In this document: positions 1,439 to 43,121 of the stretch, piece after piece
Numbering within the stretch: the first letter of the stretch is position 1
Layout: the number at the start of each line of letters is the position of its first letter
Source of the DNA: a virus
Lineage: Duplodnaviria > Caudoviricetes
Length of the DNA stretch: 64,000 bases
Direction: 5' to 3' (one strand)
Virus record (IMG/VR): IMGVR_UViG_3300025137_005045
Position numbers and translations under genes: made by a program
The notes under the pieces: generated by a model
What the model was told of the DNA's origin: nothing
What the model saw: the letters and a program-made list of their open reading frames with translations, nothing else
Database searches by the model: none

Positions 1439-2513
1439 AAAACAATATCAAACTATACGTGAAGAAATTCTACACGTTACTGATCTGGTACTCAGTGGTG
1501 GCGTACTTATGAATGGTCCGTATACCGCAAGTTTTGAAGAACAATTGGGTAAACGCATAGGATTAGAACACGTAATTACAGTACATAGTGGCACACAGGC
1601 ATTAGAAATGATAGCTCAATATCATAAGTATCAAAATGAAACATTTAGTCCTGACACTGATCTAACTGTATTGGTTCCTGCGTTAACTTATCCAGCAACC
1701 ATTAATGCGTGGATGCGAGCAGGTTGGAATGTAATCATTGGCGATGTAGACAGACGAGGTAATTTAGATTTAAGAAATATTCCTGATAAACAAACTTTTG
1801 ATGCAATATGTACAGTTGGTTTGTATGGACATCCAGTTTGGGAACAGGTAAGCGGTAGTGATGGAGACTGGATACGTTTTAAAATTTTAGTCGAAGATGC
1901 CGCCCAACACTGGCTAGCAGAAGATCAAGTTGAACTACCGGTTATGAAAGCAATAAGTTTTGATCCAATGAAAAATTTAAACAACTATGGTAATGGTGGT
2001 GCTATTGCTACATTTGATTCTGAATCAGAAAACTGGTTTCGCAGTTATAGAGAAAATGGTAAACCAGACTGGTCAGTTGACGGAACCAATAGTAGAATGA
2101 GCGAAATTGATTGTGCTCAAATGATTGTTAAACTTAAACATCTAGATGATTGGCAAGAAAGACGTCAGGAAATAGCCAGACACTATCTAGAACGTTTTAG
2201 CCATTACGAAGAAATCAGATGTTTGATTGATGACAAAAGTGTACATCAACATGGTTTACAAAAATTTGTTATTGAAGTAGGTAACAGAAATCACATTGTT
2301 TCGGATCTACGAAATAGTGGTGTTGAATGTAAGATACACTATGAAAGACCGTTGCATGAAGAAGCATTATATAGCGAATGGCCGAATCCAGGACCATTAA
2401 GTATTGCTAGTATATTAAGCAGACGTGTAATAAGTTTACCGTTTTATCCTGAATTGACTGATAATGAAATTGAATATATTGCTGATCAAGTTGTTAATCA
2501 TGCAACGAAGTAA
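1416..2513 (+). CDS. DegT/DnrJ/EryC1/StrS family PLP-dependent sugar aminotransferase
   Basis: MIPFINL N-terminus (ATG at 1416; track start 1365 is probably too long), SGTQAL, EDAAQH, SFDPMKNL with PLP lysine, NSRMSEI, ISLPFYPEL. Confidence 0.92.
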   Translation: MIPFINLRKQYQTIREEILHVTDLVLSGGVLMNGPYTASFEEQLGKRIGLEHVITVHSGTQALEMIAQYHKYQNETFSPDTDLTVLVPALTYPATINAWMRAGWNVIIGDVDRRGNLDLRNIPDKQTFDAICTVGLYGHPVWEQVSGSDGDWIRFKILVEDAAQHWLAEDQVELPVMKAISFDPMKNLNNYGNGGAIATFDSESENWFRSYRENGKPDWSVDGTNSRMSEIDCAQMIVKLKHLDDWQERRQEIARHYLERFSHYEEIRCLIDDKSVHQHGLQKFVIEVGNRNHIVSDLRNSGVECKIHYERPLHEEALYSEWPNPGPLSIASILSRRVISLPFYPELTDNEIEYIADQVVNHATK

Positions 2514-3795
2514 AATATTCAGATAACCACTCCCAATCGTAACTAAGTTTTAACTTATCAAAGTCACCTTTGACTCGTTCATAATAGACAACAGCATCTT
2601 TGGCGCCTTGTTTTGACCATTCACCGTTTGTTCCGCTACCTTTGGTTTGCCACACTCTCAATCTATATTCTGTTTCGATATCAGCACGAGTTTGAAGATG
2701 ATTTTGAAGTTTTAATACTTCACGAAATGCTGAACGCCATGCCATGAATTTATCATCTGCATAGTTAGCAACACCACTTAGTATAGGAACAACTTCGTGA
2801 GCTTGATCAAGTGTAAAATCTAAACCTGGTCCAGTATTAGATAGTACTAATTTTTTATTGTATGCTATCATGGCCATGTGACCATACTCTAATCCGTTAA
2901 TAGGATTTTTTGCATGGAATATATAGTGTTTTGGCTGTTGCCAGTAGTCTGGTTGCCACCAAAAATCAAAATTTTCGTCTATTTTAAGCTTCGCAAACAC
3001 TGAAAAGAACCACGGGGTACTACTGACCTTAGCCGCGGCCTGATAAGCGTGTATACGACCTTGTACGCCGGTTATACGGTGTAAATTGTTGCTGTTTTTT
3101 GCTAATATTTGTGATAAATGTTCATAATTTTCGTCAGCGTTTACTTCTCCGTTATCAATAAACACCACATCTAGAGGCCGAGACGGATATGCAAAATAAT
3201 CCTGTAAATGATCATAATCATATATTTGAGTAGTAATTTGGCTTGTTGCTTGTCTGGGTATTAGACTAATTGATCGTGATTTATTGAGACTGACCACGCA
3301 AGGATCTTTCCATAATTGAGGATCATATTGTGTAACAGCTGGTGTGTCAGTGACCAAAGCATAAGGTGTTTCAATGGATGTTTTTATTGCTGATACTAGA
3401 TCATCACCGACATATTTAATATATTGAGGATGTAACCTTTTAACTCCGTTGAGTTGCCAATTAATGTCTTGGTATAGATCAATACGTTCTGGATTCTGTT
3501 GTTTAAAGTTGTCAGTGGGGACCAGAAATGTATCTCCAAGTTTTTGTTGTCCACTAGACCAACAGTGTATTTGATAACTTTCCCAAGGAGCAGGCTCCCA
3601 ATCAAAATCAAAATTAGTATAGTCACAACAGGTAGCAATTAACCAAAACTTTCTCGTTCTACTCTGATCTGCGGCTTTACGCATTGCATTAAGATGTGTG
3701 GTCCATCGTAAAACTTTAGCATGTGGATAACGCTCTGTTAAATACTGTAGGTTGGAACTATGTCCGCCCATGTCCATTATGAATATATCAAACAT
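2494..3795 (-). CDS. Glycosyltransferase-like (GT-A-like) protein with internally duplicated domain
   Basis: C-terminal half (LDVVFID...GVQGRIHAYQAAAKVS...AWRSAFRE) aligns by eye with 17434..18342. N-terminal half is a second degenerate copy. The GT function is inference. Confidence 0.55.
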   Translation of the reverse strand: MFDIFIMDMGGHSSNLQYLTERYPHAKVLRWTTHLNAMRKAADQSRTRKFWLIATCCDYTNFDFDWEPAPWESYQIHCWSSGQQKLGDTFLVPTDNFKQQNPERIDLYQDINWQLNGVKRLHPQYIKYVGDDLVSAIKTSIETPYALVTDTPAVTQYDPQLWKDPCVVSLNKSRSISLIPRQATSQITTQIYDYDHLQDYFAYPSRPLDVVFIDNGEVNADENYEHLSQILAKNSNNLHRITGVQGRIHAYQAAAKVSSTPWFFSVFAKLKIDENFDFWWQPDYWQQPKHYIFHAKNPINGLEYGHMAMIAYNKKLVLSNTGPGLDFTLDQAHEVVPILSGVANYADDKFMAWRSAFREVLKLQNHLQTRADIETEYRLRVWQTKGSGTNGEWSKQGAKDAVVYYERVKGDFDKLKLSYDWEWLSEYFTSLHD

Positions 3796-7758: not shown

Positions 7759-8854
7759 TTTTATCACTCCAACAATAATTAAATGTGTTACTAACACCGT
7801 CTACTTCTATACTGTATATATCTAGGTGTGTTTCGAGTTGGCGCCAAATATCAAACATATCAACTGTACCAAAACTTCTTTTTAAATCAACTTTTCCTAT
7901 AGGTAAATGTCCAAGACTAAGTTTTGGATCTCGTGGATCCAAGCCGTGTTTAAGTAACCAATTTTCAAACTCCAATTGTTCTCTATTATGCCAAGGATAG
8001 TTATTAGATCTGGTAACATCGTTAGCCCACTCTACATCAAACTCACCTGAGTAATACTGTAAATGTGTAATTTCTTCACAGGTTGCTTCATCTAGGTCAG
8101 GTGCACCTTCATCACGGAAAACTTCCATTAATGTCTTACCTATTTGTGTCCAGTGCATATAAACATACCCAATCCGCCTATCATATCCGTTAGATATAAA
8201 TCCTTGTCTATGTTCCTCAGACAGATGGTATCTTTTACGCTTATCAAATGTAGTAATTTGACTTGGTCGTATCCACTCCGGTGCAACACGAGCCTTGCGT
8301 TGACTTAATATTAAACTTTCAAGTTCGTGACAACTATGATTTAACGATCCAATTGCCTGTTTAATAGAAGTGGGTGCTAATTGATGATACTGACTTGGTT
8401 TTTCTATAGTACCCTGTAAGCGTTCAAAATGATTATGTAATTTATTTAATATAGCATGCTTTGGCTGTAGCCCAATATACAGATGTCTGTTATTAATCTC
8501 TGATGATGTTACTGTTCCTTCTATCTGATAGGTGGCTGGAAATCTTACAGTGTTTGGATGAAACCATTCTTCTATTAAATAGTCAGTGAGACCTAATTTA
8601 GTAAAATCATATCTATTAATAATTTCTATATTTTTGTTTAATTCATCGCATAGATATTCTAGTGTTCTTGGACTGTTTGGAAAGCCTAAAAAACAAAACT
8701 CTTTCTGAAGTTTTAAATTATTAGATAATGTTTCTTTAAGTGCTATTATCCAATCTTTAGCCAACTGAGTATCATTGGGAACAATATAATAATCTAGTGT
8801 ATCCTCTTTATCCAATGGATTACGCAGTGTTACTTTAACTTCCAATTGACTCAT
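7745..8854 (-). CDS. Hypothetical protein, possibly metal-binding
   Basis: Long ORF in the coupled operon. Likely start ATG 8854 (MSQLEV; track gives 8881). His/Glu motifs LHNHFE, NHSCHELE, YMHW. Confidence 0.7.
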   Translation of the reverse strand: MSQLEVKVTLRNPLDKEDTLDYYIVPNDTQLAKDWIIALKETLSNNLKLQKEFCFLGFPNSPRTLEYLCDELNKNIEIINRYDFTKLGLTDYLIEEWFHPNTVRFPATYQIEGTVTSSEINNRHLYIGLQPKHAILNKLHNHFERLQGTIEKPSQYHQLAPTSIKQAIGSLNHSCHELESLILSQRKARVAPEWIRPSQITTFDKRKRYHLSEEHRQGFISNGYDRRIGYVYMHWTQIGKTLMEVFRDEGAPDLDEATCEEITHLQYYSGEFDVEWANDVTRSNNYPWHNREQLEFENWLLKHGLDPRDPKLSLGHLPIGKVDLKRSFGTVDMFDIWRQLETHLDIYSIEVDGVSNTFNYCWSDKNELV

Positions 8855-10142
8855 ACCAGTGTAATGCCTCCGGGCGTTCACTTAAAATGTCAGCAAGGGT
8901 GTATTTGTCCTTACGTATAAGTTCTAATTGTAACACACGACGCTTACCTTTTGCAAGACTTTCTTGGTAAGTATCTGGCCATTGTTCTTCAAAAGTTGGC
9001 CGTGTTTTAAGTTGCACCAATATGTCACGCATAGCACCGTTGCTAGTAACAATTAGTTCATCTAACCAAGGATGCAATATTGATTTTGGTAATGCTAGCG
9101 GACTAAAAATAATATCAGGAGTAAAACTAAAGATTACTTTGGCTAGTATGTCTACACCTTTTTCTTCTGCGAGCGTTTGGATGTTTTCGACTTCGAAGAG
9201 TCCTGGGAGCGTGAGCGTGAAGTCGATACGTAACTGGCGGCTATGTATTTTACTCTCAACTCCCTGATCGAAGTTTTCAAGCCACGAACCATACTTGAGA
9301 CCTGTCCTAATGTACTCTCCAATTTTTCCTGTTCCGTCAAGCGACGCACAGATTTGCCAGTCCCGTAACCTAGAAAGTATATCCCGATACAAATTAATAC
9401 CGCGATAATCACATCTGCTAAGATTTGTATTATATCTTGCGTAAACATTTTTACCGTCTCCTAATTCAACTATCCGTTTCATGTACTTCCAATGTTGCTC
9501 GTACATTAACGGTTCCCCTCCTACCCAATAAACCTCTTCTATGCGGTGGTCTTCCACCGCTTGGGCAAATTCCTGCTCTACTACAGAGTCCTGGAACTTC
9601 TCAATTTCTTTCTTAACATCGCGTTTCATCCAGTTGTTTTTAGGATTTGACCAGTTAATCATATTGTGCTTGCGTTGTTCTGTTTCCCATGCACTTGATA
9701 ACATATCGCCACATGTGCGGCATTTGAAGTTACATAAATTACTAAAACGATAATCCCAACTTACAGGTTCCATCGTTGTATGGCCTGTTTCGTCTGTTGT
9801 TTCCCATAACTTTGTATAGTATTTACTACTGAATAGTCTATCAAAATATGTACGGTAAACATCAGTATTCAACAGCTTATCGTTGCATACGGCACATTCC
9901 GCTAAGGTTTCTCCAGCCATCATGCGTTTACGAACTGATTTCATATGGTCACTGTTCCAGTGATCGTGCAATGTGATTGGCTGATATTCTCCCGTACCTT
10001 CTTTGGTATCTATATACTGTTCAAACGATTGTGCATCCTCACGACTAGCACAGCACATACGTCTTTCAGTCTGTGGCGATAGATAAGTATGTGTCCACGG
10101 AGCCATACACAATGTTTCTGGTTTGTTTTTAGGTTCTTTCAT
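8835..10142 (-). CDS. Radical SAM protein with N-terminal SPASM/twitch-like Cys domain
   Basis: CxxxCxxC (CNFKCRTC), GGEP, YNTN, ASLDG; N-terminal CMAPW..MCCAS..CAVC. Confidence 0.9.
   Translation of the reverse strand: MKEPKNKPETLCMAPWTHTYLSPQTERRMCCASREDAQSFEQYIDTKEGTGEYQPITLHDHWNSDHMKSVRKRMMAGETLAECAVCNDKLLNTDVYRTYFDRLFSSKYYTKLWETTDETGHTTMEPVSWDYRFSNLCNFKCRTCGDMLSSAWETEQRKHNMINWSNPKNNWMKRDVKKEIEKFQDSVVEQEFAQAVEDHRIEEVYWVGGEPLMYEQHWKYMKRIVELGDGKNVYARYNTNLSRCDYRGINLYRDILSRLRDWQICASLDGTGKIGEYIRTGLKYGSWLENFDQGVESKIHSRQLRIDFTLTLPGLFEVENIQTLAEEKGVDILAKVIFSFTPDIIFSPLALPKSILHPWLDELIVTSNGAMRDILVQLKTRPTFEEQWPDTYQESLAKGKRRVLQLELIRKDKYTLADILSERPEALHWYESIGS
9152..9448 (-). CDS. Candidate overprinted gene (+1 frame in radical SAM): N-terminal TM helix, coiled-coil-like middle, Ser/Lys/Arg-rich tail
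   Basis: SD AGGAG 9 nt before ATG; host gene uses rare codons (ACG, CTC, TCG, CGG, CGC) across the overlap. Confidence 0.55.
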   Translation of the reverse strand: MFTQDIIQILADVIIAVLICIGIYFLGYGTGKSVRRLTEQEKLESTLGQVSSMVRGLKTSIRELRVKYIAASYVSTSRSRSQDSSKSKTSKRSQKKKV

Positions 10143-12769: not shown

Positions 12770-14021
12770 TTAACTCCGGTATTGCTTCTGATATGTTTTC
12801 GTTTCTAATTTTATCTAACTCTTGCATACGTTCCCAAAACTTAGGAAGTTGATCTTGATTGTTGCCTTCTAAAAAGTTAAGTGCTGATTCAAATCCCACA
12901 GTTGCTCTATTCAATTTATCTAACGGACGTAACCATTCTAAGTGTTCTTCAAACTTAGCCTTAATTTTATCTTTATATTCTTGTGGTGCAATATCAATAC
13001 GCAACCATAATGGGTCTTGTAATACGTTAACGTTTAAGTCTTGAGGTTTAATGTATCCTTTGTTAACCCACTCACGATGGAAATCAGGTAAGTGCAACGC
13101 ATTTTGTATTGATAGTGTAGGACTAATATAGAAGTCAACATCAGGACATATTTCCATCATTAGACGTCTGTTTTCTTCTATCTCTGCCCACTTAGTACCT
13201 TTTCTAATATACTCAGCACGTGGACCCATTGCGTCAAGACTAGCACCCACTGCAACACTATCAAACTTCTTCCAATAGTCAAACACTAACCGGTCTTTAA
13301 GTTTTGTTTTAGAGAAGTTTGTGTTGTATACTAATCGTACATCAAAGCGATTACGCTTTTCTAGTTCTTCTAGGATAACATAATGCTCATCCATCATTAA
13401 AGGCTCACCGCCAGCGAAATATATTTGTTCTACGTAATCTAAATGTTCGTACAACTGTTCCATAATATCTGTTTCGTGTCGACCTGCCCAGAACAGAGCC
13501 TTGTTCTGTTTGTTATGGCCTTCACCGGTTAACACCTTTTGATCTTTATACCAACTTGAACTAAAGATATGTCCACATGAACGACATGATAAATTACATA
13601 AGTTACTAAAGCGTATGTCCCAATATGTCATTTCAAAAGGAGGATCTATGTCTGTGCCTTTTTTAATATTGTGTCCGTGATGTTTGTTAGCACTCTTGCG
13701 TCCTGAAAAGAAACCAGCATCCTCTTGTTCATAACATCTAGTACACGCTGAATTCTCACGTTCATTTAACATGTCTTCACGTAGTTGTTTCATCTTGGCG
13801 CCTGACCATATTTCTTTCATTGGTTGCTGTTGACAGTTACCAACTTTCTCAGGCATTTCAGCATGACAACAAGGATAAGCATCACCAGTTGGGTATGCGT
13901 GTAAATGTATCCAAGGATACATACAAAATGTTTTTGATTCTGTTAATAAAAACTTTTCACGATCGTTCAATTGATCTAGACTAATCTTTACTGGTTCACT
14001 TGAATTGTAATTATAAGCCAT
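12747..14021 (-). CDS. Radical SAM protein with N-terminal SPASM/twitch-like domain
   Basis: CNLSCRSC, FAGGEP, YNTN, ASLD; FCMYPW..PCCHA..CTRCY. Confidence 0.9.
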   Translation of the reverse strand: MAYNYNSSEPVKISLDQLNDREKFLLTESKTFCMYPWIHLHAYPTGDAYPCCHAEMPEKVGNCQQQPMKEIWSGAKMKQLREDMLNERENSACTRCYEQEDAGFFSGRKSANKHHGHNIKKGTDIDPPFEMTYWDIRFSNLCNLSCRSCGHIFSSSWYKDQKVLTGEGHNKQNKALFWAGRHETDIMEQLYEHLDYVEQIYFAGGEPLMMDEHYVILEELEKRNRFDVRLVYNTNFSKTKLKDRLVFDYWKKFDSVAVGASLDAMGPRAEYIRKGTKWAEIEENRRLMMEICPDVDFYISPTLSIQNALHLPDFHREWVNKGYIKPQDLNVNVLQDPLWLRIDIAPQEYKDKIKAKFEEHLEWLRPLDKLNRATVGFESALNFLEGNNQDQLPKFWERMQELDKIRNENISEAIPELNEIRINN

Positions 14022-15366
14022 TATACCAATCCTCTAATTCAGGAAACGTTTCAGTAAAGTTCTTTCCCCTACGTTCGTCATACTGTGTATAAAATTGTTT
14101 AAAGTCATTTAGTAGTTTAGGCATTTCAAATGATTCTGAATGCGGCCTTTCTACTATATTTAAGTAATCAACTAATCTTTCTATATGATTTATTTCAAAC
14201 TCGTGTAGTCTATCACCATAGTTTGCTTTAAATATGTTTAATCTATTTGCTTGTGCTTGTCTAAACTGCTTATCCAATACCAATGCTGATTGAAAGCTAG
14301 GAAAGCGTAGAATATTTAGTGTAAAATTAATTGCGTCTTTTCCGTATTCTTGTTTAAGATAGACTATCTGTTTCAACAAATAAGGTAGTCTAATCAAGCA
14401 CAGAGCGTTCACTGTACACATTACATGTAATCCACGTAGCTTTTTACTATCTAACAAATAACGAACGTTTGCAAGCCATTGACCGTAATCTAATCCATCA
14501 CGTATATACTCGGCATGATTATAAGTTGCTTCGTTTGATGTGTATATGTCTAGTTCAACATCCTGTGCGGCTTCCAACAATCTATCTATTTTCTTTTGAT
14601 CTAATGCTAGATTACTGTTAACAGCTATACGTGTTTTTGACTTTCCTCTATTAGTTTTAAACCAATCAAACAGTTGCCATGTATAACCTGACATCAAAGG
14701 CTCGCCACCTGTTATCCTTAATTCAGTTAAGGTCTTGTGAAGATCGGACTCCCACCACTTGAAGAATGCCTCAACATAAGGATTATCATCACGGATAGTA
14801 AAAAGCTGACTGCTATCGTGACTATGAGTAAAGTGATTGCGGCCGTCACTAACCAACTTGGTATAAGCACCATTTTGCTTAATGTCCCTAGCCCAACTAC
14901 TGCTAAAAGCGGGATTGCAATAAGTACAAGCCAACTGGCAAGTCCTATCAAAAGCAATTTCCAAAGTTCTAAGGTTAACATCTTGTGTCCAAGGCTTAGT
15001 GTGTGCTTCATTTAATTCCTCATCTGTGTATATTCTAGTTTTATCTACACGGTCTGATATTTTGTCAGTACCCATGTCCTCAATTTTCCAACAGTACTCA
15101 CAGCCTTTAGGTCTCTCACCTACCTGCATCTGTCTACGCTGTTCTTTCTTTTCAACAGTATTATGTAACGCACTTGGATTTGTTTTAATTAGTTCACGAT
15201 CAATCTGATGCGGTAAGGGATGATGACAACTGGTAGTTTGTCCGCTACCTAGCCATATGGTAGCATTATACCATTTAGCACCACAGAAGCTATCAGATTT
15301 AATGTCGATAACTCTACGTTTATATGTTAAGTCAGATTCATTAGGCTTTTTTGGCATGTTGTTCAC
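14011..15366 (-). CDS. Radical SAM protein with N-terminal SPASM/twitch-like domain
   Basis: CQLACTYC, ITGGEP, VNSN; FCGAKW..SCHHP..CEYCW. Confidence 0.9.
   Translation of the reverse strand: MNNMPKKPNESDLTYKRRVIDIKSDSFCGAKWYNATIWLGSGQTTSCHHPLPHQIDRELIKTNPSALHNTVEKKEQRRQMQVGERPKGCEYCWKIEDMGTDKISDRVDKTRIYTDEELNEAHTKPWTQDVNLRTLEIAFDRTCQLACTYCNPAFSSSWARDIKQNGAYTKLVSDGRNHFTHSHDSSQLFTIRDDNPYVEAFFKWWESDLHKTLTELRITGGEPLMSGYTWQLFDWFKTNRGKSKTRIAVNSNLALDQKKIDRLLEAAQDVELDIYTSNEATYNHAEYIRDGLDYGQWLANVRYLLDSKKLRGLHVMCTVNALCLIRLPYLLKQIVYLKQEYGKDAINFTLNILRFPSFQSALVLDKQFRQAQANRLNIFKANYGDRLHEFEINHIERLVDYLNIVERPHSESFEMPKLLNDFKQFYTQYDERRGKNFTETFPELEDWYNGL
14727..15011 (-). CDS. Candidate overprinted 94-aa multi-pass membrane protein (holin-like), +1 frame in radical SAM
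   Basis: SD GAGG 6 nt before ATG; about 60 nearly uninterrupted hydrophobic residues; only 8 of 94 host codons in the overlap end in A, far fewer than in the flanks. Confidence 0.6.
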   Translation of the reverse strand: MKHTLSLGHKMLTLELWKLLLIGLASWLVLIAIPLLAVVGLGTLSKMVLIPSWLVTAAITLLIVTIAVSFLLSVMIILMLRHSSSGGSPIFTRP

Positions 15367-16771
15367 ACTCCTTCCACCATGTTTCCATCTCAGGAAATAT
15401 CTTTAGAAAGTTTGTACCTCTTCTCTTATCATGTTCTGTAAAAAATTTATAAAAGTCTGCTTTCTGTTGGGCAAGGTATTTAGTGTCTAGTTTTTGACCG
15501 TTACGCATCCAAGCGATATCTCTATCAAGCCGTTGCATTTCATAATCTTTAAATCCTTTAAAACGTGTTTCTTCTGTTTCTCTCCACTTCAACATCCAAG
15601 CCCATAATAGTTCAAGTTGATCACAATAGCTTTCTGGAAGTATCTGCATGCTTTGCCATTCGGGTGTACGCAATAGAGGAGTATCAAACCATACACGTTG
15701 GTATGTATTTGAGTATACATGTCTAAGTCCGTTAATACCTGCTAGTATACTGCCAAATGATGTTACATTTAGATTATTCATTGTGATAATAAATGTTATG
15801 CTTGAACGTTCTGGTACTTCTGTCAAGAATTGATTAACACGTTCCCATAACAACTCAAAGTTCAATCCATCACGTATGTATTCTGCTTTATCTCCAAAAG
15901 CATCAACTGACACATACTGCATGAAATGTTCTACATTGTCATCTCGACATATCATCTTGACATAATCTAAATACTTGACCCATAGTTTTTCACTTACTGA
16001 AAAGTTTGATGTTGTTGATAGATGTAAGTCAGATTTAGGATTGGCTAACACATGATCAAATACCTTATACGTATTCTTATCCATCATTGGTTCGCCACCT
16101 GTCATACGGAAGTGTTTAAGCTCAGGATATAAGTCAGGCCACCATTCCCAAAATGCTTCTACATAAGGATTATGTTCTCTAAAAGGTATAGGCTTACGAC
16201 TGCCTTGAAAGTATTTAGGATCATTATGAGGAGTTGATGTAGGCCACGCACCATGTTTGTCAGTTTCTTTTTCCCAAGCAGTTGAATACTGTGGTGAACA
16301 ATAACTACAGCGTAGATTACAGTTATGATTAAAGTTTACTTCTACATAGCTAGGTATAACATCTTGGTCCCAAGGTGCATCTACTATTTCTTTAAAACTT
16401 TCAGCGGCCCATGGCTCGCCTGAACGATAATGCCTATCACTTAGCTGACCATTATCTTCTGCATTCCAACAGTATGAACACTCATCAGGACGCTTTCCCT
16501 CTAACATCTGCTTACGTGCTTGTTTCTTTTCAGCAGTGTTGTGTAACGCACCTGGATGAAATGTCAATGGCTTAACATCTATATCATGTAAGGGAGGATG
16601 ATAGCATGAGTTAGTTTTACCTGTTGTAAGGTGTAAGCTGACCTGTTTCCATTTAGCTAGGCACATGCTAGGACTTACTGAGTCTAGTTGAGCTTTGGCC
16701 AACTCTGCATCACTTAAGAACTTTGACTTAAAGTCTACTCCTGTTTCATCACCTTTGTTTTGTTTGTTCAT
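15341..16771 (-). CDS. Radical SAM protein with N-terminal SPASM/twitch-like domain
   Basis: CNLRCSYC, MTGGEP, TTSN, VSVD; MCLAKW..SCYHP..CSYCW. Confidence 0.9.
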   Translation of the reverse strand: MNKQNKGDETGVDFKSKFLSDAELAKAQLDSVSPSMCLAKWKQVSLHLTTGKTNSCYHPPLHDIDVKPLTFHPGALHNTAEKKQARKQMLEGKRPDECSYCWNAEDNGQLSDRHYRSGEPWAAESFKEIVDAPWDQDVIPSYVEVNFNHNCNLRCSYCSPQYSTAWEKETDKHGAWPTSTPHNDPKYFQGSRKPIPFREHNPYVEAFWEWWPDLYPELKHFRMTGGEPMMDKNTYKVFDHVLANPKSDLHLSTTSNFSVSEKLWVKYLDYVKMICRDDNVEHFMQYVSVDAFGDKAEYIRDGLNFELLWERVNQFLTEVPERSSITFIITMNNLNVTSFGSILAGINGLRHVYSNTYQRVWFDTPLLRTPEWQSMQILPESYCDQLELLWAWMLKWRETEETRFKGFKDYEMQRLDRDIAWMRNGQKLDTKYLAQQKADFYKFFTEHDKRRGTNFLKIFPEMETWWKECEQHAKKA

Positions 16772-40892: not shown

Positions 40893-43121
40893 TTAATATT
40901 TAGGTTTTGGGATTTTATCGTTATTAATTAACGCATTGCCTGCACTATCAATACCTGTTCTATCCGTTGTGCCAGAATATCCGCCGGGACTACCAAAGCC
41001 ACTTAGATCAGGAGTAATTTTTTCATCTACAAATTGAACAGCATATTGAGCATTTCTTGCTGTTTGTTTAATACCATTGGATATTGTAGTATTTAAATCT
41101 AGACCTTTGGCCCATCTTGTAGTATTATTGACACCGTGACTGATGGACGCATTTAACAATGCTCCTAGATCGTTGGGAGATTCAGTTCCCTTGATCACTC
41201 CGTTTGCTCTTAATTGACTTACGTTGGCCACAAACACATCTTGAACTGCATCTTCCTGTAATGTTGCATTATTAAGGAAGGATGTTAAGTTTGATACTCC
41301 ACCTTTGTTTGTCCACACTGTGGAACTAGATAATACTCTTTCAAGTTGCGTAGTAGTATTACCATAACTATCGGTGCTGGTGCTTGTTGGATCTGTTAAG
41401 AAACGATCTAGTGTACCTGGAGTTAGGTATCCTGCTGATTCTAATTGTTCAGCACTTAAACCAAATTGTCCTAGTCCTTTGTCGGTACTAAACTCATTGA
41501 ATCGTTGTGCAGTATCTTTGGACAGTTGACCCATGATACCAGTAACTTGATCACTGTTTAGTGTTTCAATGTCACCTGACGCTTTATTGATCGCAGTAAA
41601 GTCTTTTAGCTCAATGCCCTTAGGTGAAAATCCTGATACTTCTGTGATTGCCTTTTGTGTAGCTGTTGGTAAAGGTGTTTGTTTAGCACCACCAAAGTTA
41701 ACTGAGTTTGCTACACCTAAATTATGGAACGGCCACGGTTCGTGTGTAGGAACTCTGGTATTGATAGTTTCTAGTTTGCCTGTTTCACTTTGCCATCCTG
41801 TACTACTATTGAATGTGCTGTCGCTTACTTTATTTTTTGGAATTGCTGTAGCTGGTGATACTGGAATGCTACCGCCTGAATTTAATGCAACACATCCTGC
41901 TGTTAATGATAGATTATCTCCTCCATCAAAACTTCCAACCTTACCTGCATCCAATGCCAGTGTTTGGTCTGACCTTACACTTATTTTTAATTTACTATAT
42001 GCTTTTAGTTCACCTTCAGCCCTAAGATTAATAAATGATGATTCTAAATTTAACTTTTGTTTACCTAACATGTTGATGTTTTGTCCGGCATACATGTTAA
42101 TGTCTTTATCGGCATGTAAATTAATAGTGCCCTGTGTTCTTACATTAACAGAATTAGTTGAAAATACATCTACTGTACCTTGTGAACCAAACTCTAACCA
42201 CGACTGTCCATTGGCATGCGTGATATAAAAACAGTTGCCATCGTCACTCATCGTGATTTGATGACCTTTAGCAGTTCTGATTCTAATTAATTGATCGTTG
42301 CCTTCAAGATCACCGTCATCCATAACAAGAGTGTGTCCACCTCGACGACCAATGACTTTTATTTGATCTTGAGTGACTTCACCTTTTTCTAATTTACCTT
42401 TGATATCTGTTTCACTGAAACCACCTGCATAGATAGGTTTACCTGGAGTGCTTACTCCAAACACTGAGCTTGGACTTTCTCTTTGACTGCTTGATGATAT
42501 CGGACCTCTTATACTGTCGTCGATCAGTCCTTGTTGAAAAATTGAATATGCGTGTGTTGAATGGATAGGTTTAGCTCTATCCCAAAATCTACTGTCCTCA
42601 AATACTTCAGGATTCTCTCCATTGATTTCTGTAACAGGAACTGATCCTGTATTACTGTAGAAACTTCCTGCCGCGGCCCCTTCCTTGTCAAATTTCGGAG
42701 AGCCTGCAATACCAGGAATCATATGTCCTAGTCCTGGATCAGGAACACAACCTGTGTAGTATCCTTGATTTGGATCACCGTCTGCAAAGAAACAAAATAC
42801 CTTGGTTCCCACGTCCGGTGGAGTAAACCACATACCGTATGTGTGTCTATTTCCTACAAAATTACCTGTACCATCGTTACCGCCTGCATGTTCTGTTGCT
42901 CCGTAGAAATGAGGTAAGTAGTTAACCGTTCTCCAATTTGATTGATCCTCTGGATTTTGACCGCCAAATGATTCAATATAAACTCGTAGCCTACCAGCTC
43001 GTGTAGAGTCTACTGTGGATTTAACTAAGCCGATGAACGGTCCAAATTCTGCAGGGACTCCTCCCTTGTCAAACTTGTACGCTGTTCCTCGACCTCTATT
43101 TCTTTGTATGTTTTCTGCCAT
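40893..43121 (-). CDS. gp5: Baseplate central spike, gp5/VgrG-like (OB fold, beta-helix, extra C-terminal domain)
   Basis: GRLRVYI..W..V.Y..., YGMWFTPPDVGTKV.CFF.DGDPNQGYY.G; GHTLVMDD, GHQITMSD, SWLEF repeats. Confidence 0.75.
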   Translation of the reverse strand: MAENIQRNRGRGTAYKFDKGGVPAEFGPFIGLVKSTVDSTRAGRLRVYIESFGGQNPEDQSNWRTVNYLPHFYGATEHAGGNDGTGNFVGNRHTYGMWFTPPDVGTKVFCFFADGDPNQGYYTGCVPDPGLGHMIPGIAGSPKFDKEGAAAGSFYSNTGSVPVTEINGENPEVFEDSRFWDRAKPIHSTHAYSIFQQGLIDDSIRGPISSSSQRESPSSVFGVSTPGKPIYAGGFSETDIKGKLEKGEVTQDQIKVIGRRGGHTLVMDDGDLEGNDQLIRIRTAKGHQITMSDDGNCFYITHANGQSWLEFGSQGTVDVFSTNSVNVRTQGTINLHADKDINMYAGQNINMLGKQKLNLESSFINLRAEGELKAYSKLKISVRSDQTLALDAGKVGSFDGGDNLSLTAGCVALNSGGSIPVSPATAIPKNKVSDSTFNSSTGWQSETGKLETINTRVPTHEPWPFHNLGVANSVNFGGAKQTPLPTATQKAITEVSGFSPKGIELKDFTAINKASGDIETLNSDQVTGIMGQLSKDTAQRFNEFSTDKGLGQFGLSAEQLESAGYLTPGTLDRFLTDPTSTSTDSYGNTTTQLERVLSSSTVWTNKGGVSNLTSFLNNATLQEDAVQDVFVANVSQLRANGVIKGTESPNDLGALLNASISHGVNNTTRWAKGLDLNTTISNGIKQTARNAQYAVQFVDEKITPDLSGFGSPGGYSGTTDRTGIDSAGNALINNDKIPKPKY

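Follow-up and report, generated by a model that had tools for sequence, protein, structure and literature searches.

The stretch of DNA examined here, which we call the window, is the whole 64,000 nucleotides (64 kb) presented for IMG/VR record IMGVR_UViG_3300025137_005045, and comes from an uncultured, T4-related jumbo phage whose genome exceeds 300 kb. It carries five tandem genes (at 8835, 11186, 12747, 14011 and 15341) for paralogous N-terminal-twitch (N-twitch) radical S-adenosylmethionine (SAM) enzymes, and our subject is ORF-D, an open reading frame (ORF) of 94 codons plus stop that lies in the +1 frame of the fourth of them, paralog D (hereafter, the host gene). The host product has 451 residues, scores 292 bits against NCBIfam NF033640 (cut-off, 170) and also matches Pfam Radical_SAM, and the sole named relative of the gene is that of Ralstonia phage RsoM2USA (52% identity). 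ORF-D begins 355 nt downstream of the host start and covers host codons 119-214, a stretch that takes in the three cysteines of the CxxxCxxC motif (Cys143, Cys147 and Cys150). A first-pass annotation, made by a model from the sequence alone, had described a 94-aa ORF in the +1 frame with the Shine-Dalgarno (SD) motif GAGG 6 nt before its ATG, and this is exactly what is present (Table 1).

Table 1. Position of ORF-D, its signals and predicted protein segments, its host gene and the other ORFs discussed (coordinates are those of the window).
Feature	Position	Strand	Remarks
ORF-D	14727..15011	-	Open in 59/82 homologs; +1 stops depleted only here
Shine-Dalgarno GAGG	15018..15021	-	6-nt spacer AATTAA before ATG
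In-frame TAA (15012..15014) directly 5' of ATG (15009..15011)	15009..15014	-	
Predicted transmembrane helix 1, residues ~17-40	14892..14963	-	Hydropathy; AlphaFold2 helix 3-47
Predicted transmembrane helix 2, residues ~53-80	14772..14855	-	AlphaFold2 helix 52-85
Polar basic C-terminal tail, residues 81-94	14730..14771	-	Mean charge +3.0, 37 homologs
Host gene, paralog D	14011..15366	-	NF033640, Pfam Radical_SAM
Host CxxxCxxC, codons 143-150, beneath ORF-D helix 1	14917..14940	-	
Antisense 92-codon ORF, by-product	14737..15015	+	Follows from A depletion
ORF-A, 98 aa, +1 frame of paralog A (8835..10142)	9152..9448	-	

The codon usage of the host gene is unusual where the two frames overlap. Only 9 of the 96 host codons there end in A, against 38% outside the overlap; the number expected from the encoded amino acids and the codon usage of the window is 34.9 (z = -6.8), and of all 16,228 segments of 96 codons taken from the window's 44 genes none scores lower. 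The first-pass annotation had thus noticed a true scarcity (it counted 8 of 94), whereas its figure of nearly half for the flanking codons was slightly high. When the host codons were shuffled synonymously, 5.6 stops were expected in the +1 frame of the overlap versus the single, terminal one observed (P = 0.002), and the Kyte-Doolittle hydropathy of the +1 product was 1.34 versus an expected 0.03 (z = +5.1). Since shuffled codons yield a hydropathy of only 0.03, the hydrophobic tendency of +1 frames in AT-rich genes, a caveat raised at the outset, is insufficient to explain ORF-D. Across all 44 genes, the +1 frame runs without a stop for 11.7 codons on average (99th percentile, 57), and the two longest such runs are those of paralog A (102 codons) and ORF-D (94). 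The next in length measure 85 codons (in 50786-51676 (+), codon 208) and 80 codons (in 2494-3795 (-), codon 52).

We compared the host gene with its relatives in IMG/VR, which number about 580, and analysed the best 80 (63-80% protein identity) plus RsoM2USA, 82 sequences being summed. The host gene is intact in all 82, and so are the three motif cysteines. Over host codons 129-208 these homologs hold 48 stops in the +1 frame versus 327 expected; in bins of 16 codons the ratio of observed to expected stops lies between 0.04 and 0.20 in this stretch and at about 0.5-1.6 in the rest of the gene. The frame has no internal stop in 59 of the 82, where 3-7 would be expected in each, and every open homolog is individually significant (P <= 0.01-0.03). 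At positions with identical amino acids outside the overlap, the fraction of identical codons is 0.44 versus 0.39 by chance, which means that synonymous sites are near saturation and that the lineages come close to independent trials.

Several controls were available for the same comparison. In eleven sequences with two or more stops, which form the closed set in our codon-class statistics (the open set being 48 distinct open sequences, referred to as lineages), codon usage across this stretch is close to normal (ratios 0.71-1.24). The distant clade of RsoM2USA (69 sequences, 44-53% identity) has 182 stops versus 238 expected and a normal frequency of A at third positions, and paralog E, which has the same Cys motif, gives ratios mostly of 0.8-0.9 in the homologous region (63 sequences). 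No depletion is seen in the +2 frame or in two antisense frames. The third antisense frame is partly depleted of stops and most homologs still have 1-5 of them in it, for which reason the antisense ORF of Table 1 was rejected as a gene. The first position of its codons is the complement of the host third position, so that a stop in it arises wherever the host uses TTA, CTA or TCA; a host gene poor in A-ending codons thereby loses antisense stops, and this ORF is a by-product. As to whether the ORF, its SD and the synonymous bias are conserved in homologs, which the first-pass annotation had proposed as a check, the outcome is clearly positive.

The start signals bear this out. Among the 48 open lineages an ATG is present at host codon 119/120 in 40 (26.4 expected), an ATG together with a core SD (AGGA, GGAG or GAGG) in 35 (8.6 expected by synonymous shuffling), and a stop no more than two codons before the ATG in 34 (16.6 expected). 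Host codon 116 ends in G (GAG in 23 and AAG in 12 of the 48), creating the SD motif; host codon 118, as TTA or CTA, provides the stop before the start, and host codon 119, as GAT or AAT, provides the ATG. A second ATG, at host codon 129, occurs in 20 of the 48; the host codon from which it arises has T as its last letter in 56% of cases versus 63% expected and thus shows no bias. The possible dual start proposed in the first-pass annotation is hence not conserved.

The bias also has a shape that can be followed along the ORF. The third position of the host codon is the second position of the nested codon, where T specifies Leu, Ile, Val, Phe or Met and A specifies polar or charged residues. 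In the 48 open sequences, third-position T stands at 1.28 of expectation (z = +9.5) and A at 0.38 (z = -14.8) under helix 1 (host codons 134-159), with similar values under helix 2 (host codons 172-198; T 1.31, z = +11.1; A 0.46, z = -12.5). Under the tail (host codons 199-212), T falls to 0.37 (z = -13.3) and A is at 1.00, and in the flanks of the overlap both ratios are about 1. This pattern by position points to selection that favours hydrophobic residues in two segments and polar ones in the tail after them. Single positions illustrate it: host Thr142 ends in T in 96% of the open sequences (33% expected) and host Asn195 in 98% (61% expected), while in the tail a host Phe written TTC and not TTT places Ser in the +1 frame.

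Two other causes for the bias were considered and rejected. The stretch folds as RNA no better than shuffled sequence (z = +1.0) and an Rfam search of it gave no match, which disposes of an explanation by RNA structure. A repeat partner was sought for the overlap stretch and none was found, so that a repeat or a diversity-generating retroelement (DGR)-type cause of the A depletion was likewise discarded.

The predicted products resemble one another. Thirty-seven distinct ones align over 94 columns with a mean column identity of 43%, and AlphaFold2, run with the 37 homologs, predicts two helices (Table 1). Mean net charge in the same set is +2.3 at the N-terminus, -0.3 in the loop and +3.0 in the tail, a distribution which under the positive-inside rule would place both ends of the product in the cytoplasm (N-in/C-in). 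The hidden gene for a small membrane protein that the first-pass annotation suspected on the radical SAM gene is therefore supported, as a gene under selection with two predicted transmembrane helices. Searching 1.8 billion representative proteins with a profile gave 33 matches; in those inspected (17 sequences, 2 loci) there was no stand-alone relative of ORF-D, and each was the nested frame called on a fragmentary contig, a frame-switch chimera or the frame in paralog E described below.

Variants of the product were seen in some lineages. In L007, L010, L014, L016, L027, L043, L047, L061 and L063, ORF-D is extended to about 128-134 codons, and the extension, which contains Ser, Gly and Cys, can be aligned across lineages. 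In L013, L018, L019 and L057 it is halved by a TAA-ATG junction at host codon 160, between the helices, and L049 has the same junction plus a further stop (five split sequences in all). The split form may represent a two-peptide variant or early decay.

The phylogeny of the host protein shows the open state spread through the clade and the outgroup closed, and its strongly supported branches force at least six changes between the open and closed states. The simplest reading is that the gene arose once, after this clade had separated from the RsoM2USA-like one, and was then lost repeatedly. Absence from the sister clade would make this origin datable, and the loss of ORF-D at least six times with the host gene intact marks it as accessory.

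Two further nested frames occur in the same gene array. ORF-A is predicted to encode an N-terminal transmembrane helix, a helical middle and a basic Ser/Lys tail. Its 68 distinct homologs hold 46 stops in the +1 frame versus 396 expected over host codons 241-320; it starts at an ATG at codon 232 with AGGAG 9 nt upstream, and it exists in length forms of 56-60, 72-76 and 96-108 aa. No match to it was obtained in the ESM Atlas or PHROGs. In one sub-clade, paralog E carries a hydrophobic +1 frame of 87-112 codons at the site homologous to ORF-D (L082:1733-2059 (+), and L030, L045, L047, L048, L057, L062, L073 and L079), with 10 stops versus about 30 expected in 8 sequences. In the window itself this frame of paralog E (15341-16771) is closed by 6 stops. 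ORF-D is closed or split in 4 of the 8 members of the sub-clade that were examined, and the paralog-E frame could reflect redundancy or a parallel origin.

The genes adjoining the array encode a nucleotide-sugar epimerase, an aminotransferase, a dCMP-deaminase-like protein, a carbamoyltransferase and a methyltransferase besides the radical SAM paralogs, and the tail and baseplate genes come next on the same strand as this operon. Inside a baseplate hub/lysozyme-like gene (40893-43121 (-)) lies the longest antisense ORF of the window, with 219 codons and an ATG (41569-42228 (+)). DNA nearly identical to the host gene was found in marine or seawater metagenome runs of at least nine studies from 2014 to 2024, which shared 30-100% of the sampled 31-letter words, so that the phage lineage appears to be widespread in the sea. 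Among RNA libraries, four runs shared only about 5-6% of the sampled words, and in X17, one of two RNA runs compared, contigs 90-96% alike covered 14915..15067, which takes in the start of ORF-D. These contigs are not proof of transcription, since DNA carry-over is possible, and RNA is blind to the reading frame. Three DNA variants fell within ORF-D, all at host third positions and none creating a stop, in a sample too small to use.

In our view ORF-D is very probably a true gene, overprinted on the radical SAM gene and coding for a membrane protein with two passes. At the level of sequence, the comparison of homologs shows selection for the open frame, for its start signals, for two hydrophobic segments and for a polar tail, and from this we infer translation, membrane insertion, topology and function. 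Ribosomes would start internally on the operon mRNA, at the SD and ATG that belong to ORF-D and after the in-frame stop, and the product of about 94 residues would form a helical hairpin in the inner membrane of the host, with the basic N-terminus and basic tail in the cytoplasm and the short, neutral-to-acidic loop in the periplasm. Selection seems to act mainly on hydrophobicity class and charge and not on specific residues, which suggests that the protein works through its membrane hairpin; it may do so by binding to itself or to a membrane protein of the host, in an accessory role late in infection. The gene would have been born de novo within one clade of aquatic jumbo phages, after the RsoM2USA-like split.

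Some observations weigh against this interpretation. Support for ORF-D comes from sequence comparison in a phage that is uncultured, and the frame is closed in 23 of the 82 homologs, which makes the product dispensable. Synonymous-site conservation in the classical sense is weak: within the overlap the fraction of identical codons is 0.50 versus 0.41 expected, a small excess, and closed lineages are similar in this respect; the signal of ORF-D resides in codon class rather than in codon identity. The AlphaFold2 model has a predicted local distance difference test (pLDDT) score of 67, that is, moderate confidence only. Neither the ORF-D protein nor its 37 homologs matched a family in Pfam, PHROGs or NCBIfam; the best of the ESM Atlas features for ORF-D reached 0.86, below the lead threshold, and a Foldseek search of BFVD gave no significant match (best E = 0.86). 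Finally, the GG in the tail and G40 of the product are imposed by host Trp codons and are thus uninformative about selection on ORF-D.

As to function, the leading single guess, which we advance tentatively, is a lysis-timing protein with the topology of class II holins or antiholins. ORF-D would then be specifically a holin or antiholin, a late inner-membrane hairpin that times lysis by forming or blocking holes, and we hold this to be possible but doubtful. With 93-130 aa, two predicted transmembrane helices, N-in/C-in orientation and a basic cytoplasmic tail, the product looks like a class II holin, and it shares orientation with the tail genes. On the other hand, no holin family in Pfam, PHROGs or NCBIfam matched it, the dual start is not conserved, and neither an endolysin nor a spanin nor another lysis gene lies nearby, the neighbours being sugar-modification enzymes. 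The last criterion is weak because lysis genes are scattered in T4-like phages. A gene lost six or more times with its host gene intact, moreover, cannot encode the sole holin. In favour of the holin reading, the T4-type holin PF11031 was not found in five near-complete relatives (91-100% complete), yet the control of this search was also unmatched; T4-type lysozyme PF00959 and Amidase_2 PF01510 were not found in them either, and lysis genes were not located in this way. Small phage lysis genes are also often nested in the +1 frame, as is lambda Rz1 in Rz (PMC6139136).

For the late operon postulated in the first-pass annotation, the one indication is the co-orientation with the tail genes; no canonical TATAAATA was found between 4,900 and 23,000. 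This T4 late-promoter word has one site in the 64 kb (54119-54126 (-)), while shuffled sequences contain 9.1 on average and none of 100 shuffles lacks it. It may be that the word is avoided where there is no real promoter.

A second possibility, to which we give no more credence than to a holin, is that the hairpin and ORF-A tether the radical SAM or sugar enzymes at the inner membrane, or that the tail is a substrate of the radical SAM enzyme. What speaks for it is location: the two longest +1 frames of the 44 genes both lie in N-twitch paralogs, whose share of the coding sequence is about 11%, in one sub-clade paralog E holds a third at the corresponding site, and the products of nested pairs such as Rz/Rz1 interact (PMC6139136). 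However, each cytoplasmic part of the product has only about 15 residues, and selection on it favours polarity and charge rather than a motif; the host enzyme stays intact where ORF-D is lost, and ORF-A is retained on a contig in which ORF-D is closed (L050 and L098, which are the same contig). Complex prediction for ORF-D with ORF-A (alignments A1 and A2) gave a score of 0.00, which is uninformative either way. That the N-twitch array as a whole is a hotspot in which small membrane genes are overprinted again and again (the candidates being ORF-D, the frame of one sub-clade in paralog E, and ORF-A, which occupies another site in paralog A), their products perhaps partnering the carrier enzymes (for instance, by recruiting a cytosolic sugar-modifying pathway to the membrane), appears to us rather improbable; if true, the same DNA would code for an enzyme and for the membrane protein that partners it.

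The T4 protein Imm is a small two-pass exclusion protein and offers an analogy for ORF-D. Its product might accordingly be a superinfection-exclusion or host-takeover factor whose target is a membrane protein of the host or the DNA of an incoming phage, which we consider unlikely. Small size, two predicted membrane passes, dispensability and repeated loss would all suit such a factor, and small overlapping exclusion genes exist in other phages (e.g., Pseudomonas phage Fc02; PMC9936078). Genes of this kind are, however, usually early, whereas the operon of ORF-D is co-oriented with tail genes, and no similarity of sequence or fold was found in the ESM Atlas or BFVD.

It is less likely still that ORF-D is not translated and that its codon bias is a by-product of selection on the host mRNA (for example, on local translation speed near the iron-sulfur motif) or of mutational bias. 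The region does encode the most conserved part of the host enzyme, and some excess of T persists in closed lineages at host codons 142 and 146. Nevertheless, T is in excess under the helices and scarce under the tail; the bias goes together with an ATG, an SD and a preceding stop that are all commoner than expected, it is missing in paralog E, the distant clade and the lineages with stops, and it is not accompanied by excess RNA structure. A programmed frameshift, in which ribosomes on the enzyme frame slip to +1 and fuse the N-terminal twitch domain to a membrane anchor, is very improbable: the database proteins P0017 and P0025 do run from the radical SAM frame into that of ORF-D, but they switch at different places and stem from metagenome assemblies, so that assembly errors are more likely, and in most open lineages an in-frame stop directly before the ATG closes the +1 frame upstream, with no conserved slippery site seen.

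We conclude that ORF-D very probably represents a new family of overprinted genes for predicted two-pass membrane proteins. To our knowledge, genes lying entirely within another gene in a different frame are familiar from very small phages and, in large double-stranded DNA phages, are almost only embedded spanins; ORF-D would thus be a clear comparative case of a nested gene in a phage of more than 300 kb, under little pressure to save space. The lineages that lack it amount to natural knock-outs, in which the codon bias of the host gene is relaxed, and the signature of selection can be read residue by residue, which would make the locus a model for how a membrane protein arises over the most conserved part of an enzyme. 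It also suggests that membrane proteins of giant phages escape gene callers; as far as we know, most holins and exclusion factors of these phages have yet to be recognised. Should the product time lysis or act as a partner of the radical SAM enzyme, it would be a new family present in hundreds of marine and freshwater phage genomes.

Among known systems, E of PhiX174 (within D) and L of MS2 are lysis genes of small phages, overprinted in the +1 frame of an essential gene and encoding about 75-91 residues, that act by inhibiting cell-wall synthesis or by a single-gene lysis mechanism which is unknown. ORF-D resembles them in its hydrophobic +1 product, its apparent de novo origin and a hydrophobicity drawn from T at host third positions. 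Theirs are, however, tiny genomes pressed for size and proteins with one transmembrane helix, whereas ORF-D is found in a genome of more than 300 kb and has two predicted helices. In size, number of helices, predicted N-in/C-in topology and basic tail it is closer to class II holins such as S21 of phage 21, but unlike S21 it has no family match, no endolysin neighbour and no conserved dual start, and it has been lost repeatedly. Vakirlis et al., in Nat Commun in 2020, reportedly described de novo membrane proteins that arose from thymine-rich sequence. As in those cases, the first selectable property of ORF-D would have been a transmembrane helix from T-rich codons; they concern non-coding DNA, in contrast to ORF-D, whose T-rich positions would have been made by selection on the synonymous sites of an enzyme gene.

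Nesting in the +1 frame is a typical feature of phage lysis genes (PMC6139136, PMC8227390), and the closest parallel in architecture is lambda Rz1 in Rz, which like ORF-D is wholly nested in the +1 frame, has its own start and was overlooked by gene callers (PMC6139136). Rz1, however, is a proline-rich outer-membrane lipoprotein nested in the gene of its own partner within a lysis cassette (PMC6139136), whereas ORF-D is predicted to encode a two-helix integral membrane protein and is nested in an enzyme gene within a sugar-modification operon.

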